A stretch of 64,000 nucleotides of DNA from an uncultured Candidatus Saccharimonas sp. (GTDB lineage Bacteria > Patescibacteriota > Saccharimonadia > Saccharimonadales > OMJO01), in the NCBI GenBank assembly GCA_943353165.1, contig CALRAM010000002.1, positions 65,716-129,715 on the forward strand, read 5' to 3'. Both the position numbers and the translations under genes were made by a program. Of this stretch, positions 28,149 through 57,162 are shown piece by piece (the stretch's first letter is position 1; the number at the start of each line of letters is the position of its first letter). A model generated the notes under the pieces. That model had not been told where the DNA came from. It did not search any database and saw only the letters and a list, made by a program, of their open reading frames with translations.

Positions 28149-28201
28149 TTGAATGCATTAAAGTTCCGGGATCGAAACCGATTGAACCTAGTTCAGTAGG
28201 A

Positions 28202-28230
28202 TTGTGACAGTGAGCGCAATCTTGTAAAAT
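28202..28230 (+). promoter_or_regulatory. Promoter of tRNA-Leu(CAG): TTGTGA - 17 nt - TAAAAT
   Basis: -35 at 28202-28207 and -10 at 28225-28230; the tRNA starts 9 nt after the -10. Confidence 0.55.
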
Positions 28231-28420: not shown

Positions 28421-30061
28421 ATGAATAAAATAGCACATTATCTGCAGGAACATTTGTCCGGTGAAGTTATGACCAACCAGGAAGCACTGGAGTATTTTTC
28501 TACCGACGCCAGTATCCTGCGCTTAACTCCATCTATCGTGGTGTACCCACGGAACGAAAACGATATTCGTAAAACTACCAGATTTACTTGGCAATTGGCC
28601 GAAAGAGGCAGAGTAATACCCCTGACTGCTCGTGGATCAGGAACAGATCAGAGCGGCGCAGCGCTTGGTAGCGGGATTGTCATGATTTTCCCTGCTCATA
28701 TGCACAGAGTTTTGGATCTGGATGGAAAGACCGGCACAGTAACCATAGAACCCGGAATAAACTACGGAACACTACAACAAACTCTACATACACACGGCAG
28801 GTTTTTGCCACCGTATCCTGCGTCAAAGGAGTACAGCACAGTTGGAGGTGCCATAAGCAACAATGCCGCTGGGGAAAAAACAATAAAATACGGTAACACC
28901 CGTGATTATGTCAAAAGTTTGCGCGTTGTGCTGGCCAATGGCGAAGTCATAGAAACACGCAGAATATCCAAAAAAGAGCTAAACAAAAAATTGGGGTTGG
29001 CAACCTTTGAGGGTGAAATATATCGTAGCTTAGATGTTTTAATAGAAGAAAATAAAGCCGTATTGTCTAATTTAGCGCCCAAAGTAACAAAGAATTCATC
29101 TGGTTATGCCTTGGATTTGGTAAAACGAAAAGACGGCAGCTTTGACCTGACACCGCTAATTGTTGGCTCGCAGGGCACTTTGGGAGTGGTCAGCGAAGCT
29201 GTACTAGGAACAGAGCCTCATAACCCCAAAACGACATTGATCGTTGCTTTTTTCGACGATTTGGTGGTAGCCGAAGCAGTGTTGTTGGAATTGGATAAAA
29301 TATCTGATACACCAAGCGCCATAGAGGCGGTGGACGGAAATTTGCTAAAACTAGTTAAGTCCAAAAATCCAAATCTACTAAAGGGTGTCATAGATTCAAC
29401 TCTACCAAAGCTAGTTTTGCTGGTAGAGTTTGACAATACAAGCGATCGAATCCAAAAAAGCTTGGCCAAACGCGTAGAAAAGATAATGGCTAGCCAACAG
29501 ATAACCTGTCAGATAGAAACCGATCCCGCTGCACAAGAAAAATTGTGGAGTATCCGCCGAATGTCAGCGACAATTGCGGCTAGTGTTGATGCAAATGGAG
29601 CAAAGGCTTTGCCAATGATAGAAGATGGAATTGTGCCATTGGCTAGGTTCAAAGATTATATGCACGGAGTCTATGCACTGTTTGAGCGCTATGGCCTAGA
29701 AGCTGCAGCTTGGGGGCATGCAGGAAACGCCAACCTACATATGCAGCCGTTTCTGAACTTGTCGCAGGTCGGAGACCGTCAAAAAGTATTTAGGTTACTA
29801 GATGAGTACTATGAACTAGTGCTAAGCATGGGCGGTAGTACAACAGCAGAGCATGGCGATGGTCGTATCAGGGGGCCATATTTGCCCAGAATGTTCCAGC
29901 CCGAAGAATATGAATTGTTCCAAAAAACAAAGCAGATTTTTGATCCTTATGGCACCTTGAATCCGGGTGTCAAAATCGATGTAAAGATAGAAGACATAAA
30001 GCCACTACTCAGACACGAATACAGCACGGCTCATTGGCTACAACATATGCCGCACAACTAG
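28421..30061 (+). CDS. FAD-linked oxidase (GlcD / D-lactate dehydrogenase family)
   Basis: FAD_binding_4-type motifs (ARGSGTD, GGAISNNAAGEK) and a C-terminal oxidase domain. The start could be ATG 28421 or TTG 28397. Confidence 0.8.
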   Translation: MNKIAHYLQEHLSGEVMTNQEALEYFSTDASILRLTPSIVVYPRNENDIRKTTRFTWQLAERGRVIPLTARGSGTDQSGAALGSGIVMIFPAHMHRVLDLDGKTGTVTIEPGINYGTLQQTLHTHGRFLPPYPASKEYSTVGGAISNNAAGEKTIKYGNTRDYVKSLRVVLANGEVIETRRISKKELNKKLGLATFEGEIYRSLDVLIEENKAVLSNLAPKVTKNSSGYALDLVKRKDGSFDLTPLIVGSQGTLGVVSEAVLGTEPHNPKTTLIVAFFDDLVVAEAVLLELDKISDTPSAIEAVDGNLLKLVKSKNPNLLKGVIDSTLPKLVLLVEFDNTSDRIQKSLAKRVEKIMASQQITCQIETDPAAQEKLWSIRRMSATIAASVDANGAKALPMIEDGIVPLARFKDYMHGVYALFERYGLEAAAWGHAGNANLHMQPFLNLSQVGDRQKVFRLLDEYYELVLSMGGSTTAEHGDGRIRGPYLPRMFQPEEYELFQKTKQIFDPYGTLNPGVKIDVKIEDIKPLLRHEYSTAHWLQHMPHN

Positions 30062-30077
30062 GACACTGGTTGCCAAA

Positions 30078-30106
30078 TTGAGTTTTTGGCAAAAAAATTG
30101 TAAAAT
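30078..30106 (+). promoter_or_regulatory. Promoter in front of the truncated tRNA-Leu copy: TTGAGT - 17 nt - TAAAAT
   Basis: -35 at 30078-30083 and -10 at 30101-30106. It shares the TTGTAAAAT context with the tRNA-Leu(CAG) promoter. Confidence 0.45.
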
Positions 30107-30156
30107 AACGTGGTAAATGCGCGAGTGGTGGAATGGTAGACACGCTTGTCTGAGGG

Positions 30157-30185
30157 GTGAAACCCGCCTGTGGCGGGTTGCAAGG
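30157..30185 (+). repeat. GC hairpin repeat, copy H1 (gtgaaacccgcc-tgt-ggcgggttgcaagg)
   Basis: Stem 30161-30168 / 30172-30179 with a 3-nt loop. It directly abuts the tRNA-Leu 5' fragment. Confidence 0.85.
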
Positions 30186-30311
30186 TCGGAAGCCTGGATT
30201 GCGCAAGCAACCAAGCTGAGACGGGGTCGCAAATGATTGGGAACTAATGTTCCCAGTAATATTGTGACAGTGCCGCAAGGTGATCCCCGTCTGTGGCAAC
30301 CAAGTCCTCTC

Positions 30312-30320
30312 TGGTATAAT
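30312..30320 (+). promoter_or_regulatory. Extended -10 box TGgTATAAT for the intact tRNA-Leu(GAG)
   Basis: Ends 24 nt upstream of the tRNA 5' end. It sits where the acceptor 3' strand of the truncated copy would be. Confidence 0.55.
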
Positions 30321-30344
30321 TACTTGAACCCTGTATCGATAAAT

Positions 30345-30428
30345 GCGCGAGTGGTGGAATGGTAGACACGCTTGTCTGAGGGGCAAGTGCCGCAAGGTGT
30401 GGAGGTTCAAGTCCTCTCTCGCGCACCA
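30345..30428 (+). tRNA. tRNA-Leu (anticodon GAG), CCA encoded
   Basis: Hand-folded. Acceptor gcgcgag/ctcgcgc, anticodon stem cttgt/gcaag, loop ctGAGgg, variable arm with a GCAA loop, T arm ggagg-ttcaagt-cctct. Confidence 0.9.
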
Positions 30429-30437
30429 AAACAAAAT

Positions 30438-30466
30438 AACGACCTCTAAGGTCGTTTTGTTGTTTT
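30438..30466 (+). terminator. Intrinsic terminator after tRNA-Leu(GAG)
   Basis: Stem aacgacc/ggtcgtt followed by a U-rich tail. Confidence 0.7.
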
Positions 30467-30489
30467 GTAGCCGAGGACTTGAACCGAAA

Positions 30490-30519
30490 GGTGAGACCCG
30501 CCTGTGGCGGGTCGCAAGG
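30490..30519 (+). repeat. GC hairpin repeat, copy H2 (ggtgagacccgcc-tgt-ggcgggtcgcaagg)
   Basis: Stem 30495-30502 / 30506-30513. Confidence 0.85.
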
Positions 30520-30647
30520 ACTATTGACTGATTTAATACTTGTTTTAAGTAAGTCAAAGTCGGGGTTGCGCTAGCGTGACCAAGTCCCCCGCCTGTCTGA
30601 CCGAGCCCCCTGTCTTTTTGACAAGAAGGCCAGGCAGGACGGACAGG

Positions 30648-30756
30648 TCTCTCGCGCACCAAAACAAAATAACGACCTCCATGGTCGTTTTGTTGTTTTG
30701 TAGCCGAGGACTTGAACCGAAAGGCGAGACCCGCCAGTGGCGGGTCTCAAGGACTA
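30648..30756 (+). repeat. 109-nt direct repeat, copy 2 (orphan tRNA-Leu acceptor 3' strand + CCA + terminator + linker + hairpin H3)
   Basis: Starts at tctctcgcgcacca with no tRNA body upstream. The five differences from copy 1 fall in or next to hairpin loops and at one stem-closing position. Confidence 0.9.
30723..30752 (+). repeat. GC hairpin repeat, copy H3 (ggcgagacccgcc-agt-ggcgggtctcaagg)
   Basis: Perfect 10-bp stem gagacccgcc/ggcgggtctc. Confidence 0.85.
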
Positions 30757-30767
30757 GATACTAATTT

Positions 30768-31898
30768 TTATGTGTCTTTTGGTTTGTTTCGGCTGATATA
30801 ATAGTTTATTTTTTCAAAAGCTACTACCTGAATTTGTCTGATTCTCTCTCTAGATACGCCCAATATTTGGGCTACTTCATCTAGAGTTTTTGGGTCTCCA
30901 GAGTCTATCCCAAACCGAAGCTTTAGTATATTTGCTTCCCGTTCGGTCAAAGCTGACATTAGTTGTTCTAGCTGAACGCCAGAGTTTATTTGATCAGTTT
31001 TATGTTCTGTAGAGTCTACTTCTTCGGAAATAATATCGTACAGACTATTTGTATTGTCATCTGTATCAGAGCCAAATGTGCTATCTAATGATTTGGCTGG
31101 TTTTTGCTGGGTATATATCATCAGGGCGTCATTTGCATCTTCTGGGCTTATGCCTAGTTGCATTGATAGCCATTCTACTGTGGGTACTGTGCCTTTTTCT
31201 ATTTTACCGGTGGCAAGGTTGTTCATTTCTATGCTGACAAGCTTGTTTATTGTATTTTTTCTGTGGGGCAAGCGTATCAGGTGCGCGTCGTTTGCTTCGC
31301 TTCGTTCAATTGACTGTTTTATCCACCACGAAGCGTAGGTAGAAAACTTGAAGCCTTTTGACCAGTCAAACTTGGGAATACTACGTATAAGTCCTATTAC
31401 TCCGTTATTGAAATGATCATCACGGTCTACTACGGCCGTAAAAGCAGAGCCAGATCTTTTGCCGACTATGGAGGCTACCAATCTGAGATTTGCATGGACA
31501 GCTTCATTTTCAGCCCAGTCTAATATGGGAGCCACCTGATTCTTTTCGACAATGTTTGAACTGTCATCATCCAACACATCGTGGCCGCTTTTTATCAGAA
31601 AAAACAAACTAGTTTCTTGGGGCCTGTTTAATAGGTCTACGTTTTTTAGGCTGTTCAGGACTTGTCTATAAGAGAAATCGGAAAGATTTAGGTTGCCCCC
31701 TTTGTTTGTGTATTGTTGGGTTCGTTGGGCTTTCAGTTCTTCTGCAACCGACATGTATTCTATCAGAGAATTTTCTCGACGGTCTGGATCCATCAGTCCA
31801 TCAGAAATTTCCATTAAGTGTGCTCTCTGACGAGTCCATTCTTCGTTATATTCTATTTGCGGACGTGGTTCATTTTCTGGGTTGTATTGTGCAGTCAT
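30768..31898 (-). CDS. RNA polymerase sigma-70 family factor (housekeeping-like)
   Basis: Region 2 FSTYASWWIKQSIERS; region 4.2 LDEVAQILGVSRERIRQI; 376 aa. Confidence 0.9.
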   Translation of the reverse strand: MTAQYNPENEPRPQIEYNEEWTRQRAHLMEISDGLMDPDRRENSLIEYMSVAEELKAQRTQQYTNKGGNLNLSDFSYRQVLNSLKNVDLLNRPQETSLFFLIKSGHDVLDDDSSNIVEKNQVAPILDWAENEAVHANLRLVASIVGKRSGSAFTAVVDRDDHFNNGVIGLIRSIPKFDWSKGFKFSTYASWWIKQSIERSEANDAHLIRLPHRKNTINKLVSIEMNNLATGKIEKGTVPTVEWLSMQLGISPEDANDALMIYTQQKPAKSLDSTFGSDTDDNTNSLYDIISEEVDSTEHKTDQINSGVQLEQLMSALTEREANILKLRFGIDSGDPKTLDEVAQILGVSRERIRQIQVVAFEKINYYISRNKPKDT

Positions 31899-32792: not shown

Positions 32793-32800
32793 TATAAAAT

Positions 32801-32825
32801 GCCTCAGCTAGTCTGGGGCTTTTTA
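32801..32825 (+). terminator. Intrinsic terminator after tRNA-Gly
   Basis: Stem gcctcag/ctggggc followed by TTTTT. Confidence 0.7.
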
Positions 32826-32844
32826 TATGGTTTGACGACTCATA

Positions 32845-32967
32845 CTCCTGGCCTCTTCAAAGATAAAATATGGCCAGGATTGCTCGCGAACGCGCCTGTG
32901 GTCGGGAGTTTTTGAGTCTCCTCACCCGCACCATATAAAATGCCTCAGCAAACCTGGGGCTTTTTAT
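32845..32967 (+). pseudogene. Rearranged 3' fragment of tRNA-Gly with a 27-nt insert in the T stem, plus a duplicated terminator
   Basis: An inverted 14-mer of tRNA nt 40-53 (32845-32858), direct ggccagga (32872-32879), then the insert ttgctcgcgaacgcgcctgtggtcggg. T loop, acceptor 3' strand, CCA and terminator follow (32914-32967, matching 32773-32826). Confidence 0.8.
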
Positions 32968-33041
32968 TTGGCGATAGTCTTGTAAAATATGGGATATTAT
33001 AGTATAATCTGTAAATAATTTCATAAGGAAAGAAAATTAAG

Positions 33042-41792: not shown

Positions 41793-41869
41793 TGGTGGAG
41801 CATAAGGGATTCGAACCCTTGACCTCTTCCATGCCATGGAAGCGCGCTAGCCAACTGCGCCAATGCCCC
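41793..41869 (-). tRNA. tRNA-Ala (anticodon GGC), CCA encoded
   Basis: Hand-folded on the minus strand. Acceptor ggggcat/atgctcc with G3:U70, anticodon loop atGGCat, T arm aaggg-ttcgaat-ccctt. Confidence 0.9.
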
Positions 41870-41879
41870 AAGTACGACT

Positions 41880-41888
41880 ATTATAGCA
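41880..41888 (-). promoter_or_regulatory. Extended -10 box TGcTATAAT for the intact tRNA-Ala
   Basis: Ends 10 nt upstream of the tRNA 5' end on the minus strand. Confidence 0.55.
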
Positions 41889-41975
41889 AAAAGGGTTCGA
41901 AATATTTTAGGGATTCGACTCACCTTAGGCGAGCCCGTCGCAACATCTATGCAAACCAGTTTGCAAGAGTTGACT

Positions 41976-42006
41976 CCCTTGCAACCCGCCACAGGCGGCT
42001 TTCACC
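41976..42006 (-). repeat. GC hairpin repeat, copy H4 (ggtgaaagccgcc-tgt-ggcgggttgcaaggg)
   Basis: Same 30-nt motif as H1-H3. It abuts the tRNA-Ala 5' fragment exactly as H1 abuts the tRNA-Leu fragment. Confidence 0.85.
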
Positions 42007-42128
42007 TTGACCTCTTCCATGCCATGGAAGCGCGCTAGCCAACTGCGCCAATGCCCCAAGTATGGTGTTTGGTCTGGCACCACCTAGATATAATACATTA
42101 TTTTAGTATGCGTATTTAATGCTAAAGT

Positions 42129-56303: not shown

Positions 56304-56459
56304 ATTAAAAAATAGTTCAAAATAACTTGAAATAGGATCAAAAGTAAGGTATTGTTATATCTAGCTTCGGCTGTTGCTACAGCGCCAAAAAACAAAAATA
56401 ATCAAAGCTCTGCGAGCCATCCGCTATTTTTAGCGAATGGGAGCTTTATGTGACAGACG

Positions 56460-56483
56460 GAACCCTGCAAAGGGTTCTTTTTG
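56460..56483 (+). terminator. Intrinsic terminator (GNRA-loop hairpin)
   Basis: Stem gaaccct/agggttc with loop GCAA, followed by TTTTT. Confidence 0.7.
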
Positions 56484-56492
56484 TTTTGCATG

Positions 56493-56501
56493 TGATATAA
56501 T
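56493..56501 (+). promoter_or_regulatory. Extended -10 box TGaTATAAT, 7 nt upstream of the trmD ATG (probable leaderless transcript)
   Basis: Spacing to the ATG at 56509. Confidence 0.45.
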
Positions 56502-56508
56502 ATTACAG

Positions 56509-57162
56509 ATGAAAATTCAAATAATAAGCTTATTTCCCGAGATGTTCGACGGCGTTCTGAACACTAGTATGATGTGGAAAGCTCAGGACAAAAACCTGGC
56601 GGAGTTTGATTGCATAAATCTACGGAACTTTGGCTTAGGCAAACGCAAAACAGTGGACGATACGCCGTACGGCGGAGGGGACGGTATGTTATTGATGATT
56701 GAACCTTTATATTCTGCCGTAAAACATGCCAAAAAAATCGACAAAAACGCGTTAGTAGTTCTAATGACTGCTAGAGGTGAAAGATTGGTCCAGAAGCGAG
56801 CCCAACAGATTTCGGAAAGTAAAAAGGGGCTGATTATTATCTGTGGTCGGTACGAGGGCTATGATGAACGTATAATCGAACTCGTTGATGAACAAATATC
56901 CATAGGCGACTATGTATTGACCGGTGGAGAATTGCCCGCCATGGTACTGGTTGACAGTATTGTACGGTTAATACCTGGTGTATTGGGTGGAGAAAAAAGC
57001 GCAGAAATAGAAAGCTTTAGCGACGGGGAAACCCTGGAATACCCACAATATACCCGACCAGAAGAGTTTAGAGGATTAAAAGTTCCCAAAGTTTTACTAA
57101 GTGGCAATCATGATTTGGTAGCCAAATGGCGAATCAAAAATAGCCAAAAAGCAAACGATTAG
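56509..57162 (+). CDS. trmD: tRNA (guanine37-N1)-methyltransferase
   Basis: MKIQIISLFPEMF start; SIGDYVLTGGELPAMVLVDSIVRLIPGVLG SPOUT knot motif. Confidence 0.9.
   Translation: MKIQIISLFPEMFDGVLNTSMMWKAQDKNLAEFDCINLRNFGLGKRKTVDDTPYGGGDGMLLMIEPLYSAVKHAKKIDKNALVVLMTARGERLVQKRAQQISESKKGLIIICGRYEGYDERIIELVDEQISIGDYVLTGGELPAMVLVDSIVRLIPGVLGGEKSAEIESFSDGETLEYPQYTRPEEFRGLKVPKVLLSGNHDLVAKWRIKNSQKAND

Follow-up and report, generated by a model that had tools for sequence, protein, structure and literature searches.

A gene for tRNA-Leu(GAG) in an uncultured Candidatus Saccharimonas sp. (contig CALRAM010000002.1, of which we analyzed a stretch of 64,000 nt, called the window below) is preceded by a truncated copy of itself that is interrupted by a small structured insert. 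Saccharibacteria have genomes of ~1 Mb, in which tRNA genes are probably mostly single-copy. Despite the small genomes, four of the eight tRNA genes in the window are flanked by spare partial copies that carry the insert, here named the core, or stumps of it. A first-pass annotation had described the tRNA-Leu arrangement as a ~225-nt element that splits a tRNA gene, supplying its own promoter and a replacement 5' part.

The intact tRNA-Leu(GAG) gene lies at 30345-30428 on the forward strand (ARAGORN; Rfam tRNA, 53.2 bits). The truncated copy begins downstream of a promoter-like site, TTGAGT-17-TAAAAT (30078-30106, forward strand; 9/12 in a consensus scan), which is kept in the sister strain (loci L061/62) apart from four spacer nucleotides. 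Its 5' arm, a 5-nt leader (TAAAT) plus tRNA nt 1-39 (30114-30157), is identical to 30340-30383 at 44 of 44 positions, as the first-pass annotation had stated. Core A follows within the anticodon loop (30156-30268; 47.3 bits, E = 6.6e-9 with the covariance model R1 introduced below). It folds into three hairpins, H1 (30158-30182), P2 (~30185-30222), and P3 (30223-30268, with a 33-nt extension hairpin), and the insert proper ends with it at 30268 rather than at 30344, as had been proposed. The tRNA then reappears with its variable arm (nt 42-55; 30269-30282, 14/14 identical to 30386-30399) and, after an interruption at 30283-30300, with the 3' half of the T loop and the 3' strand of the T stem (30301-30312, 12/12 identical to 30408-30419); both pieces had been recognized before. 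The interruption, ATCCCCGTCTGTGGCAAC, is the stump of a second core formerly in the T loop, a remnant of the 5' half of H1: at the same position the sister strain has a complete 89-nt core (GTGGAGG|CGAGAACCGCC...GGTGAC|CAAGTCC). The acceptor 3' strand and CCA are missing from the copy, which passes into a junction (30313-30339) composed of a TG-TATAAT box (30313-30320) and an antisense piece of the T arm, ACTTGAACCCT (30322-30332). The box forms part of a second promoter-like site, GTGGCA-16-TG-TATAAT (30293-30320; 10/12 with the TG). The consensus scan, which located both promoter-like boxes of the first-pass annotation, returned three sites where 0.8 were expected. By its sequence, 30114-30344 is a spare, truncated, non-functional tRNA-Leu(GAG) copy directly 5' of the working gene.

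The helices first proposed for the insert fared unevenly. The pairing gggaac/gttccc is real and corresponds to the extension of P3. In contrast, ggttgc (30176-30181) is the 3' strand of H1 and does not pair with gcaacc. The pairing agacgggg/ccccgtct occurs in the minimum-energy fold of core A, but it lies outside the family structure and is missing from the sister strain; ccccgtct falls within the stump of the second insert (30283-30300). The prediction that tRNA finders would return one intact and one pseudogene call held for the first half only. ARAGORN and Rfam call the gene at 30345-30428 and nothing else, so that membership of the upstream copy in the tRNA family (RF00005) was rejected.

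The 1-kb tRNA-Leu arrangement is found, 99.8-100% identical, in at least four independent public assemblies and is therefore not an assembly artefact. Another reading, in which a group I or other self-splicing intron splits the tRNA, draws on the abundance of group I introns in anticodon loops of Patescibacteria tRNA genes (PMC13011429) and on the position of the insert, near 37/38. It is refuted, as is the artefact, since the interrupted copy has no acceptor 3' strand or CCA, a contiguous intact gene follows, and the 89-nt core matches no group I or group II intron even at E <= 10. A transfer-messenger RNA or a permuted tRNA was likewise rejected (ARAGORN negative).

A three-hairpin core at tRNA genes

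Right after the tRNA fragment stands H1, a 30-nt hairpin with the motif GGTGARA-stem-NGT-stem-TYGCAAGG. Two more copies lie 3' of tRNA-Leu and one lies 5' of tRNA-Ala(GGC) on the opposite strand; a 27-nt pattern of H1 occurs four times in the window and never in 100 shuffles, which bears out the hairpin as first annotated. An exact-pattern scan found 48 loci, nearly all labelled Saccharibacteria or Patescibacteria (one genome per species), and a looser pattern at least 120 metagenome stretches. Two patterns gave no match in 2.9 M viral contigs, and a phage origin was rejected on this ground. Common to the loci is a ~89-nt module of three hairpins, H1-P2-P3, that begins with GGTGARA and ends with GTGACC, and whose end hairpins H1 (CCGCC-NGT-GGCGG) and P3 (GGTCGC-N5-GTGACC) are unrelated to each other. 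The covariance model R1, built from 35 simple copies aligned over ~89 nt, detects 4 copies in the window, 65 at the genome loci, and at least 96 at the metagenome loci, that is, at least 165.

The core has helices supported by covariation on one strand. RNAalifold predicted 32 pairs from the 35 simple cores, 20 of them with compensatory changes. Among the 96 metagenome cores listed, in an alignment fitted to R1, 95.6% of paired cells are complementary (27-46% when the partners are slid), double changes occur in 30 of the 32 pairs, and a G.U pair in P3 is conserved in 74 of 95. The tRNA-sense strand folds better than the antisense strand in 34 of 35 cores (p = 4.5e-7), and the single-stranded motifs GGUGARA, GCAAGG, and CGGGG are invariant. 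When Rfam was searched for a known intron or ribozyme, at the gathering threshold and at E <= 10, only tRNA and sub-threshold noise were obtained. Neither Rfam 15 nor full-text searches of a paper library gave a match, in agreement with the opinion that no such class had been described; the core family is apparently undescribed.

Several identities were tried and dropped. The motifs of GGUGAGA...GCAAGG, judged by eye, do not fit hammerhead, twister, hepatitis delta virus (HDV), or hairpin ribozymes or a K-turn. A CRISPR array was excluded: H1 reaches only 17-19 bits against CRISPR-DR28 (gathering threshold 35), its copies are 233-334 nt apart, and what separates them derives from tRNA. A guide of the TnpB/omega-RNA or bridge-RNA kind ("core plus ~20-nt tRNA fragment") would be directed at the cell's own working tRNA gene, and the protein needed for it is not present. 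Membership among miniature inverted-repeat transposable elements (MITEs) fails on the lack of terminal inverted repeats and on 1-3 target nucleotides that are lost, not duplicated.

Association with tRNA genes is strong and directional. A same-strand tRNA lies within 400 nt of 121 of the 165 cores listed, covering 28 tRNA species, and for 100 of these 121, among the matches listed, the flanks share at least 12 nt of identity with that tRNA. Only 5 of the 165 have a tRNA on the opposite strand alone, and most of the remaining cores lie at locus ends. Two types of unit were distinguished. Upstream units run from a tRNA 5' part through the core and the remainder of the tRNA to the T arm, followed by a junction and the intact gene; the order first described at tRNA-Leu (5' fragment, structured insert, promoter-like junction, intact gene) was seen again at dozens of tRNA genes. 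Downstream units start with the intact gene, its terminator, and a spacer, and continue with the variable region and T-stem 5' strand, the core, the T loop to CCA, and often a copy of the terminator. Among the matches listed, 42 of 43 downstream cores occupy the T loop, and upstream cores the D arm (15), anticodon arm (15), variable region (4), or T loop (23). This census does not support the supposed mirror image of integrase-type islands: cores accompany 3' fragments on the downstream side too, in the classical polarity, and they occupy D, anticodon, variable, and T loops.

Cores are inserted in tRNA orientation after G-G(-T) in hairpin loops, the left flank ending with a purine and the core beginning with GGTGARA; 1-3 tRNA nucleotides are missing at the junction. 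Nested cores (at GGG|GTC of P3), two cores in one pseudo-copy, and tandem cores were all seen. Where the flanks match a tRNA, the intact cognate gene is always adjacent, and no intact tRNA interrupted by a core was seen among the loci examined. Core orientation follows the tRNA at the co-directional tRNA-Leu and the head-on tRNA-Ala alike; the window, whose GC skew is uniform, has core B on one strand and cores A, C, and D on the other (a single case). A closing-stem test on the flanks was uninformative because most sites are T arms, and leader identity was discarded as a marker of transcription start: by eye, 0-5 nt are common across loci, and the two units of the window disagree. As side observations, the insertion sites in the anticodon loops of Leu(NAG) and Pro(GGG) copies lie directly after G37, the substrate position of TrmD (tRNA m1G37 methyltransferase), and TrmD is encoded in the window (56437-57159).

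Such sites could be expected of a relic of a single-stranded DNA transposon, a non-autonomous derivative of IS200/IS605-like (HUH) or similar hairpin-recognizing elements that is mobilized by a factor in trans and enters extruded hairpin loops on the 3' side of GG(T). The absence of terminal inverted repeats and target duplication, the subterminal hairpins at both ends with structure on one strand and G.T tolerated, the short conserved left-flank motif, and the choice of hairpin loops, P3 of another core included, all agree with it. Yet the two end hairpins are dissimilar, and the free covariation of H1 stems next to invariant single-stranded motifs is an RNA-like pattern. Target nucleotides (1-3) are lost at the junction, core B sits on the leading-strand template, cores were never seen in the inverted T-arm copy described below, and no HUH gene was found among window ORFs (open reading frames) of at least 150 aa. 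We consider such a relic unlikely.

Hosts other than tRNAs also occur. A structured RNA of ~350 nt (GGGGGTGGGCACC...), flanked by a pth-like gene and, on its 3' side, by dprA, is found at L075, L099, L100, and L142 (e.g., L100 ~1150-1750). Its first hairpin is repeated in tandem as 5' partial copies, and these contain cores; the RNA is called by neither Rfam nor ARAGORN. At L036 (4900-5120) a core lies within a non-tRNA multi-hairpin region with no Rfam match, and the 8-kb locus contains no tRNA.

Further units in the window

The window holds four cores and three stumps in total. Behind tRNA-Leu(GAG), all on the forward strand, comes its bidirectional terminator hairpin (30427-30467; inverted repeat, found by a terminator scan on both strands), then an antisense T-arm segment, GAGGACTTGAACC (30473-30485, 13/13 complementary to 30404-30416), the remnant of an inverted copy of the tRNA 3' half. 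Core C, a full copy, occupies the T loop of the downstream partial copy (30490-30581; 71.7 bits, E = 2.2e-14) and is followed by the T-loop 3' half (AAGTCC), an unrelated ~58-nt hairpin insert, and the tRNA 3' end TCTCTCGCGCACCA (30648-30661), the three together spanning 30582-30661. The unrelated insert (CCCGCCTGTCTGAC...CAGGCAGGACGGACAGG, 30588-30645) sits in the T-stem 3' strand of downstream pseudo-copies, with a similar one in L014 (~2868-2900). From 30648 onward the sequence repeats that from 30415 (120 nt, 93% identity), and this direct repeat includes a second terminator copy (30660-30700; terminator scan). A second antisense T-arm segment (30706-30718) and the degenerate core D complete the series (30706-30798; 28.3 bits, E = 1.2e-4); in core D, H1 (30723-30752) is intact and the remainder has decayed.

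On the reverse strand, tRNA-Ala(GGC) (41793-41869; ARAGORN, Rfam) has an upstream-type unit at 41870-42062 with a 53-nt exact repeat. It comprises the leader TACTT with tRNA nt 1-53 (42062-42005), core B (42006-41918; 90.7 bits, E = 1.2e-18), TCGAATCCCT, the antisense piece TTCGAACCCTT (41901-41891), TATAAT (41885-41880), and the leader again. The layout is like that at tRNA-Leu: leader and 5' part, insert, T-loop half, TATAAT, intact gene. At tRNA-Gly(GCC), a downstream-type unit (32793-32970, forward strand) consists of the terminator, an inverted copy of variable region and T arm, GGCCAGGA, a 27-nt H1 remnant (32880-32906), a 3' fragment (32907-32933), and the duplicated terminator, and reads as a decayed member of the same system. 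Finally, a core stump (P3 with extension) and a variable-arm fragment lie 5' of tRNA-Leu(CAG) (28166-28219, forward strand; local alignment). The stump aligns to core A of L062 with a score of 64 (maximum 32 in 300 shuffles) and resembles the sister strain's core A more than the window's own.

Public gene calls include a 216-217-aa reverse-strand ORF across the tRNA/core region (30009-30662; L049 4237-4890), which has no Pfam match and is almost certainly spurious. Several contigs end inside the tRNA-Leu repeat region.

Apparent spread of the core and proposed origin of the spare copies

For 70 of the 83 cores with assigned hosts, among the matches listed, the nearest relative sits at a tRNA that takes another amino acid; a Glu and a Met unit, for instance, share 96% core identity, and a Pro and an Arg unit 93%. 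Upstream and downstream types are intermixed among nearest relatives, and the tRNA pieces beside the core match the local tRNA. Because relatives lie at different tRNAs while the flanks are local, we take the 89-nt core, not a ~225-nt block, as the transferable unit. Judged from this distribution, the core appears to have moved on its own. Some pseudo-copies carry foreign-looking alleles (L003, L060).

In the sister strain the flanking FAD-oxidase gene is 95.5% identical to that of the window, and 30114-30231 (tRNA fragment and initial ~76 nt of core A, i.e., H1, P2, and the P3 5' strand) shows no difference at all, while the P3 extension hairpin is replaced by a different sequence and the block 30473-30748 is missing. 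The contrast between empty and filled sites suggested as a check on the first-pass annotation does exist among more distantly related strains: L059 has tRNA-Leu(GAG) without any unit, and in L058 only P3, the T-loop half, and the junction are left. Hairpins with identical flanks but exchanged sequence were noted at 30231-30263 against L062, in the terminators of L015, and in the D-loop hairpins of L018, L019, L023, and L059; such wholesale replacement between close relatives or duplicate copies looks like hairpin swapping.

Selective maintenance would be one explanation for the unchanged segment. The core could be a host-functional RNA, a structured domain (ribozyme, protein-binding RNA, or processing signal) expressed from tRNA promoters in tRNA-like scaffolds, which would suit the deep covariation, invariant motifs, and conserved G.U pair, the identity of 30114-30231 next to a gene differing at 4.5% of sites, and the promoter-like site retained by upstream copies. 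Repeated truncation or deletion (30283-30300, 32880-32906, 28166-28219) speaks against it, as do presence and absence between near-identical strains, the lack of a unit at the same tRNA in L059, nested and tandem cores, downstream copies behind terminators, and the lack of an Rfam match. We regard selection for a host function as quite improbable.

How the spare copies arose is indicated by what lies between them and the intact genes. In downstream units, the spacer that follows the terminator is the tRNA itself in inverted and diverged form, running from CCA (nt ~76) back to ~nt 43: the mean local score is 30.2 compared with 18.2 in controls (p = 3.5e-9), and 37 of 52 alignments reach the reverse complement of CCA. 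The copies thus alternate in orientation (direct, inverted, direct), with the terminator hairpin as the hinge. Antisense matches to the T arm that are exact over at least 8 nt were found in 25 of 53 downstream and 19 of 53 upstream units, and in 0 of 53 controls. At many upstream loci the junction repeats the order T-loop half, short loop, antisense T arm, -10 box, tRNA. Partial copies also exist without a core, at tRNA-Phe of L059, tRNA-Ile of L007, tRNA-Leu(CAG) of L060, and in L026. Two further core-less copies, in L047 (2330-2540 and 2990-3225), lie upstream of tRNA-Arg(CCG) and tRNA-Lys and contain a piece of the D arm in inverted orientation; at tRNA-Arg(CCG) the inverted D arm lies between two direct copies, and a 22-nt promoter segment is duplicated exactly, which places the event at the DNA level.

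Tandem inversion duplications are defined by direct-inverted-direct copies whose junctions lie at palindromes. This arrangement is seen in downstream units (terminator, inverted nt 76 to 43, direct copy) and, with the inverted D arm and duplicated promoter, in L047; upstream units show only the short inverted T-arm piece. That template switching at short inverted repeats can produce inverted triplications is well established (PMC4689423, PMC10766183), and the pattern here bears the signature of such fold-back events. We propose that the partial copies arise through fold-back (snap-back) template switching at tRNA and terminator hairpins and are later trimmed, in which case the antisense T-arm pieces (30322-30332, 30473-30485, 30706-30718) would be what is left of the inverted copy. 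Such an origin is well supported for downstream units and partly supported for upstream units.

The core-less copies with inverted segments and the duplicated promoter of L047 point away from site-specific integration. In a mechanistic form of the first proposal, a ~225-nt integrative mini-element with its own promoter and tRNA 5' part recombines site-specifically in the anticodon or T loop and displaces the native 5' part. The layout fits, a -10 box recurs at the junction, units differ among close strains, and one small circle of arm, core, arm, and junction, recombining via either arm, could yield both types of unit. The breakpoints lie in loops that tRNA-targeting integrases use; sublocation classes of these integrases were reportedly set out by Williams in 2002. 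Against this stand the match of the tRNA arms to the local tRNA, with only the 89-nt core common to loci, the placement of cores in four different loops with the pseudo-copy always ending in the T arm, the unexpected inverted and core-less copies, and the absence of matches in viral contigs and of a recombinase in or near the units (window ORFs of at least 150 aa). We consider an integrative mini-element distinctly unlikely.

Template switching could also have involved RNA. Self-primed copying of a terminated transcript would give the same downstream architecture as fold-back template switching, and the core might be an abundant small RNA that was joined to tRNA transcripts or fragments by reverse transcriptase-like switching at GGU microhomology, the cDNA then recombining beside the parent gene. 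Such a retro-chimera would be the bacterial counterpart of short interspersed nuclear elements (SINEs) or U6-L1 chimeras. It would account for a sense-strand-specific structure with a conserved G.U pair, for the orientation bias (121 versus 5, among the matches listed, with the head-on tRNA-Ala included), for hosts that are stable, abundant RNAs (tRNAs and one structured RNA), and for junctions in loops with 1-3 nt of microhomology or loss. Copies often start near +1 and stop at CCA or at the terminator end, as expected from it, and self-priming at a terminator hairpin could account for the inverted copy of nt 76 to 43. But the window ORFs of at least 150 aa include no reverse transcriptase, and Patescibacteria reportedly have no group II introns (PMC13011429). 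An untranscribed promoter was duplicated in at least one core-less case, which therefore arose at the DNA level, and downstream units lie behind terminators. An origin of this kind is unlikely in our view.

Our preferred reading, to which we give about an even chance (roughly 0.5), is that the units are core-bearing spare tRNA copies of fold-back origin and that the core is the mobile unit. Insertions into the sole functional copy would be purged by selection, whereas cores in spare copies could accumulate, nest, and decay. Expression of the intact gene may be kept by the TG-TATAAT junction box, by read-through from the upstream promoter, or by both. The core itself would be copied via a single-stranded sense intermediate (RNA or top-strand DNA) with a factor encoded elsewhere.

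Several observations weigh against this reading. No orthologous pair having the same pseudo-copy with and without a core was found, and the block 30473-30748, with AGGACT microhomology at both of its ends, may have been either gained in the window's strain or lost from the sister strain. Among window ORFs of at least 150 aa, all housekeeping or unannotated, there is no recombinase, transposase, reverse transcriptase, or homing endonuclease. Fold-back and trimming predict neither the duplication of only five leader nucleotides in units A and B nor the recurrent -10 box at the junction. At the non-tRNA host (L075, L099, L100) 5' partial copies with a core again precede the intact copy, which hints that insertion and duplication are linked. 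The alignment behind the 96-core pairing figures was the one fitted to R1, and the invariant single-stranded motifs and conserved G.U pair would fit a functional host RNA too.

Separately, GIY-YIG ORFs were noticed at four core-bearing loci (L023 128-373, L017 reverse complement 1680-1889, L015 reverse complement 763-960, L039 7240-7470) out of the 48 genome loci. In L023 and L017 the ORF separates a tRNA 5' fragment from the intact tRNA, in L015 it lies just upstream of the tRNA, and in L039 it lies downstream on the opposite strand. The ORFs encode ~80 aa, a bare catalytic domain (PF01541, E = 5e-19 for L023). We estimate that their co-occurrence with core-bearing tRNAs exceeds chance, and they may be a source of breaks at tRNA genes. 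As a driver within the window they were rejected: a hidden Markov model from the four locus ORFs gave a best E of 0.024, with no Pfam match.

A bolder version, which we hold to be unlikely, places the mobility of the core at the RNA level. The core would be a small RNA, ribozyme-like or capable of ligation, that invades exposed GGU loops of tRNAs and other stable RNAs, the chimeras being fixed in DNA beside the parent gene by self-primed or template-switching reverse transcription. The GGUGARA, GCAAGG, and CGGGG junctions together with the G.U pair would form its active part. It would be a bacterial analogue of SINEs or retrozymes and, if true, categorically new.

If the preferred reading, core-bearing spare copies made by fold-back, is correct, the core represents a family of miniature structured elements that reside in an unusual place, the loops of tRNA pseudo-copies, and that neither Rfam 15 nor the full-text literature searched contains. 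Many "tRNA fragments" in assemblies of the candidate phyla radiation (CPR), along with spurious ORF calls and broken contigs, would then have a possible explanation, and small-scale fold-back duplication at tRNA and terminator hairpins would be a recurrent process. The arrangement also suggests that an essential RNA gene can harbor small selfish elements and still function. Model R1 provides a means to annotate the family, and a sharp question is raised, namely what copies an 89-nt, strand-specific element that has no enzyme.

Comparison with known systems

Core units resemble the islands and prophages inserted by tRNA-targeting tyrosine integrases, with which they share a partial tRNA copy beside the intact gene, breakpoints in the anticodon or T loop, tandem arrays of 3' fragments, and, downstream, the classical polarity. 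Unlike these, they have no integrase or cargo; the insert is 89 nt and the units 190-280 nt and non-coding. They also occur upstream with 5' fragments, use D-loop and variable-region sites, include an inverted tRNA copy, and have local arms. A test for the identity block of integrase islands gave direct repeats, but the arms match the local tRNA and the cores appear to move without them, with foreign-looking alleles in L003 and L060.

Small structured repeats are represented by repetitive extragenic palindromes and bacterial interspersed mosaic elements (REP/BIME), Rickettsia palindromic elements (RPEs), and Correia elements and other MITEs; RPEs also lie inside genes. Like these, the core is ~100 nt, non-coding, and multicopy, with conserved structure, variable sequence, and no enzyme of its own. 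It differs in having no terminal inverted repeats or target duplication, in its three asymmetric hairpins and strict sense orientation, and in being nearly confined to loops of partial tRNA copies beside the intact gene. Palindrome-associated transposable elements (PATEs) of the IS200/IS605 type share strand-specific hairpins near both ends, the lack of terminal repeats and target-site duplications, and a short target motif 5' of the left end. In contrast, the core has dissimilar end hairpins and freely covarying stems, its junctions lack some target nucleotides, an HUH transposase was not seen, and orientation follows the tRNA and not replication (one testable case).

Introns at multiple sites of tRNA genes are known from archaea (Thermoproteales). 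The core recalls them as a structured insert in tRNA loops, including near 37/38, with several per copy and signs of intron-like transposition between tRNAs. Unlike theirs, its host copy is too incomplete to give rise to a tRNA; it matches no family of ribozymes, and its junctions are imprecise (1-3 nt lost). The paper on Patescibacteria tRNA introns covers group I introns only (PMC13011429). Tandem inversion duplications and origin-dependent inverted-repeat amplification (ODIRA) (PMC4689423, PMC10766183) share the direct-inverted-direct order, junctions at terminator, T-arm, and D-arm hairpins, and later trimming. Here tens of bases, not kilobases, are involved, the events recur at tRNA genes, and the spare copy is colonized by a structured element. 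Phage T4 encodes SegB, a GIY-YIG homing endonuclease, in its tRNA gene cluster (PMC2330249, PMC13096335), and enzymes of the SegB type reportedly cause segments of tRNA loci to be amplified (PMC13096335). The GIY-YIG ORFs between tRNA 5' fragment and intact tRNA (L023, L017) or just upstream (L015) are similarly placed, but GIY-YIG was not detected in the window and is present at only 4 of 48 genome loci, as a bare ~80-aa domain known here from sequence alone. Each of these systems shares some traits with the core units and fails at least one defining test. We rate the core as a structured miniature repeat with a new niche.

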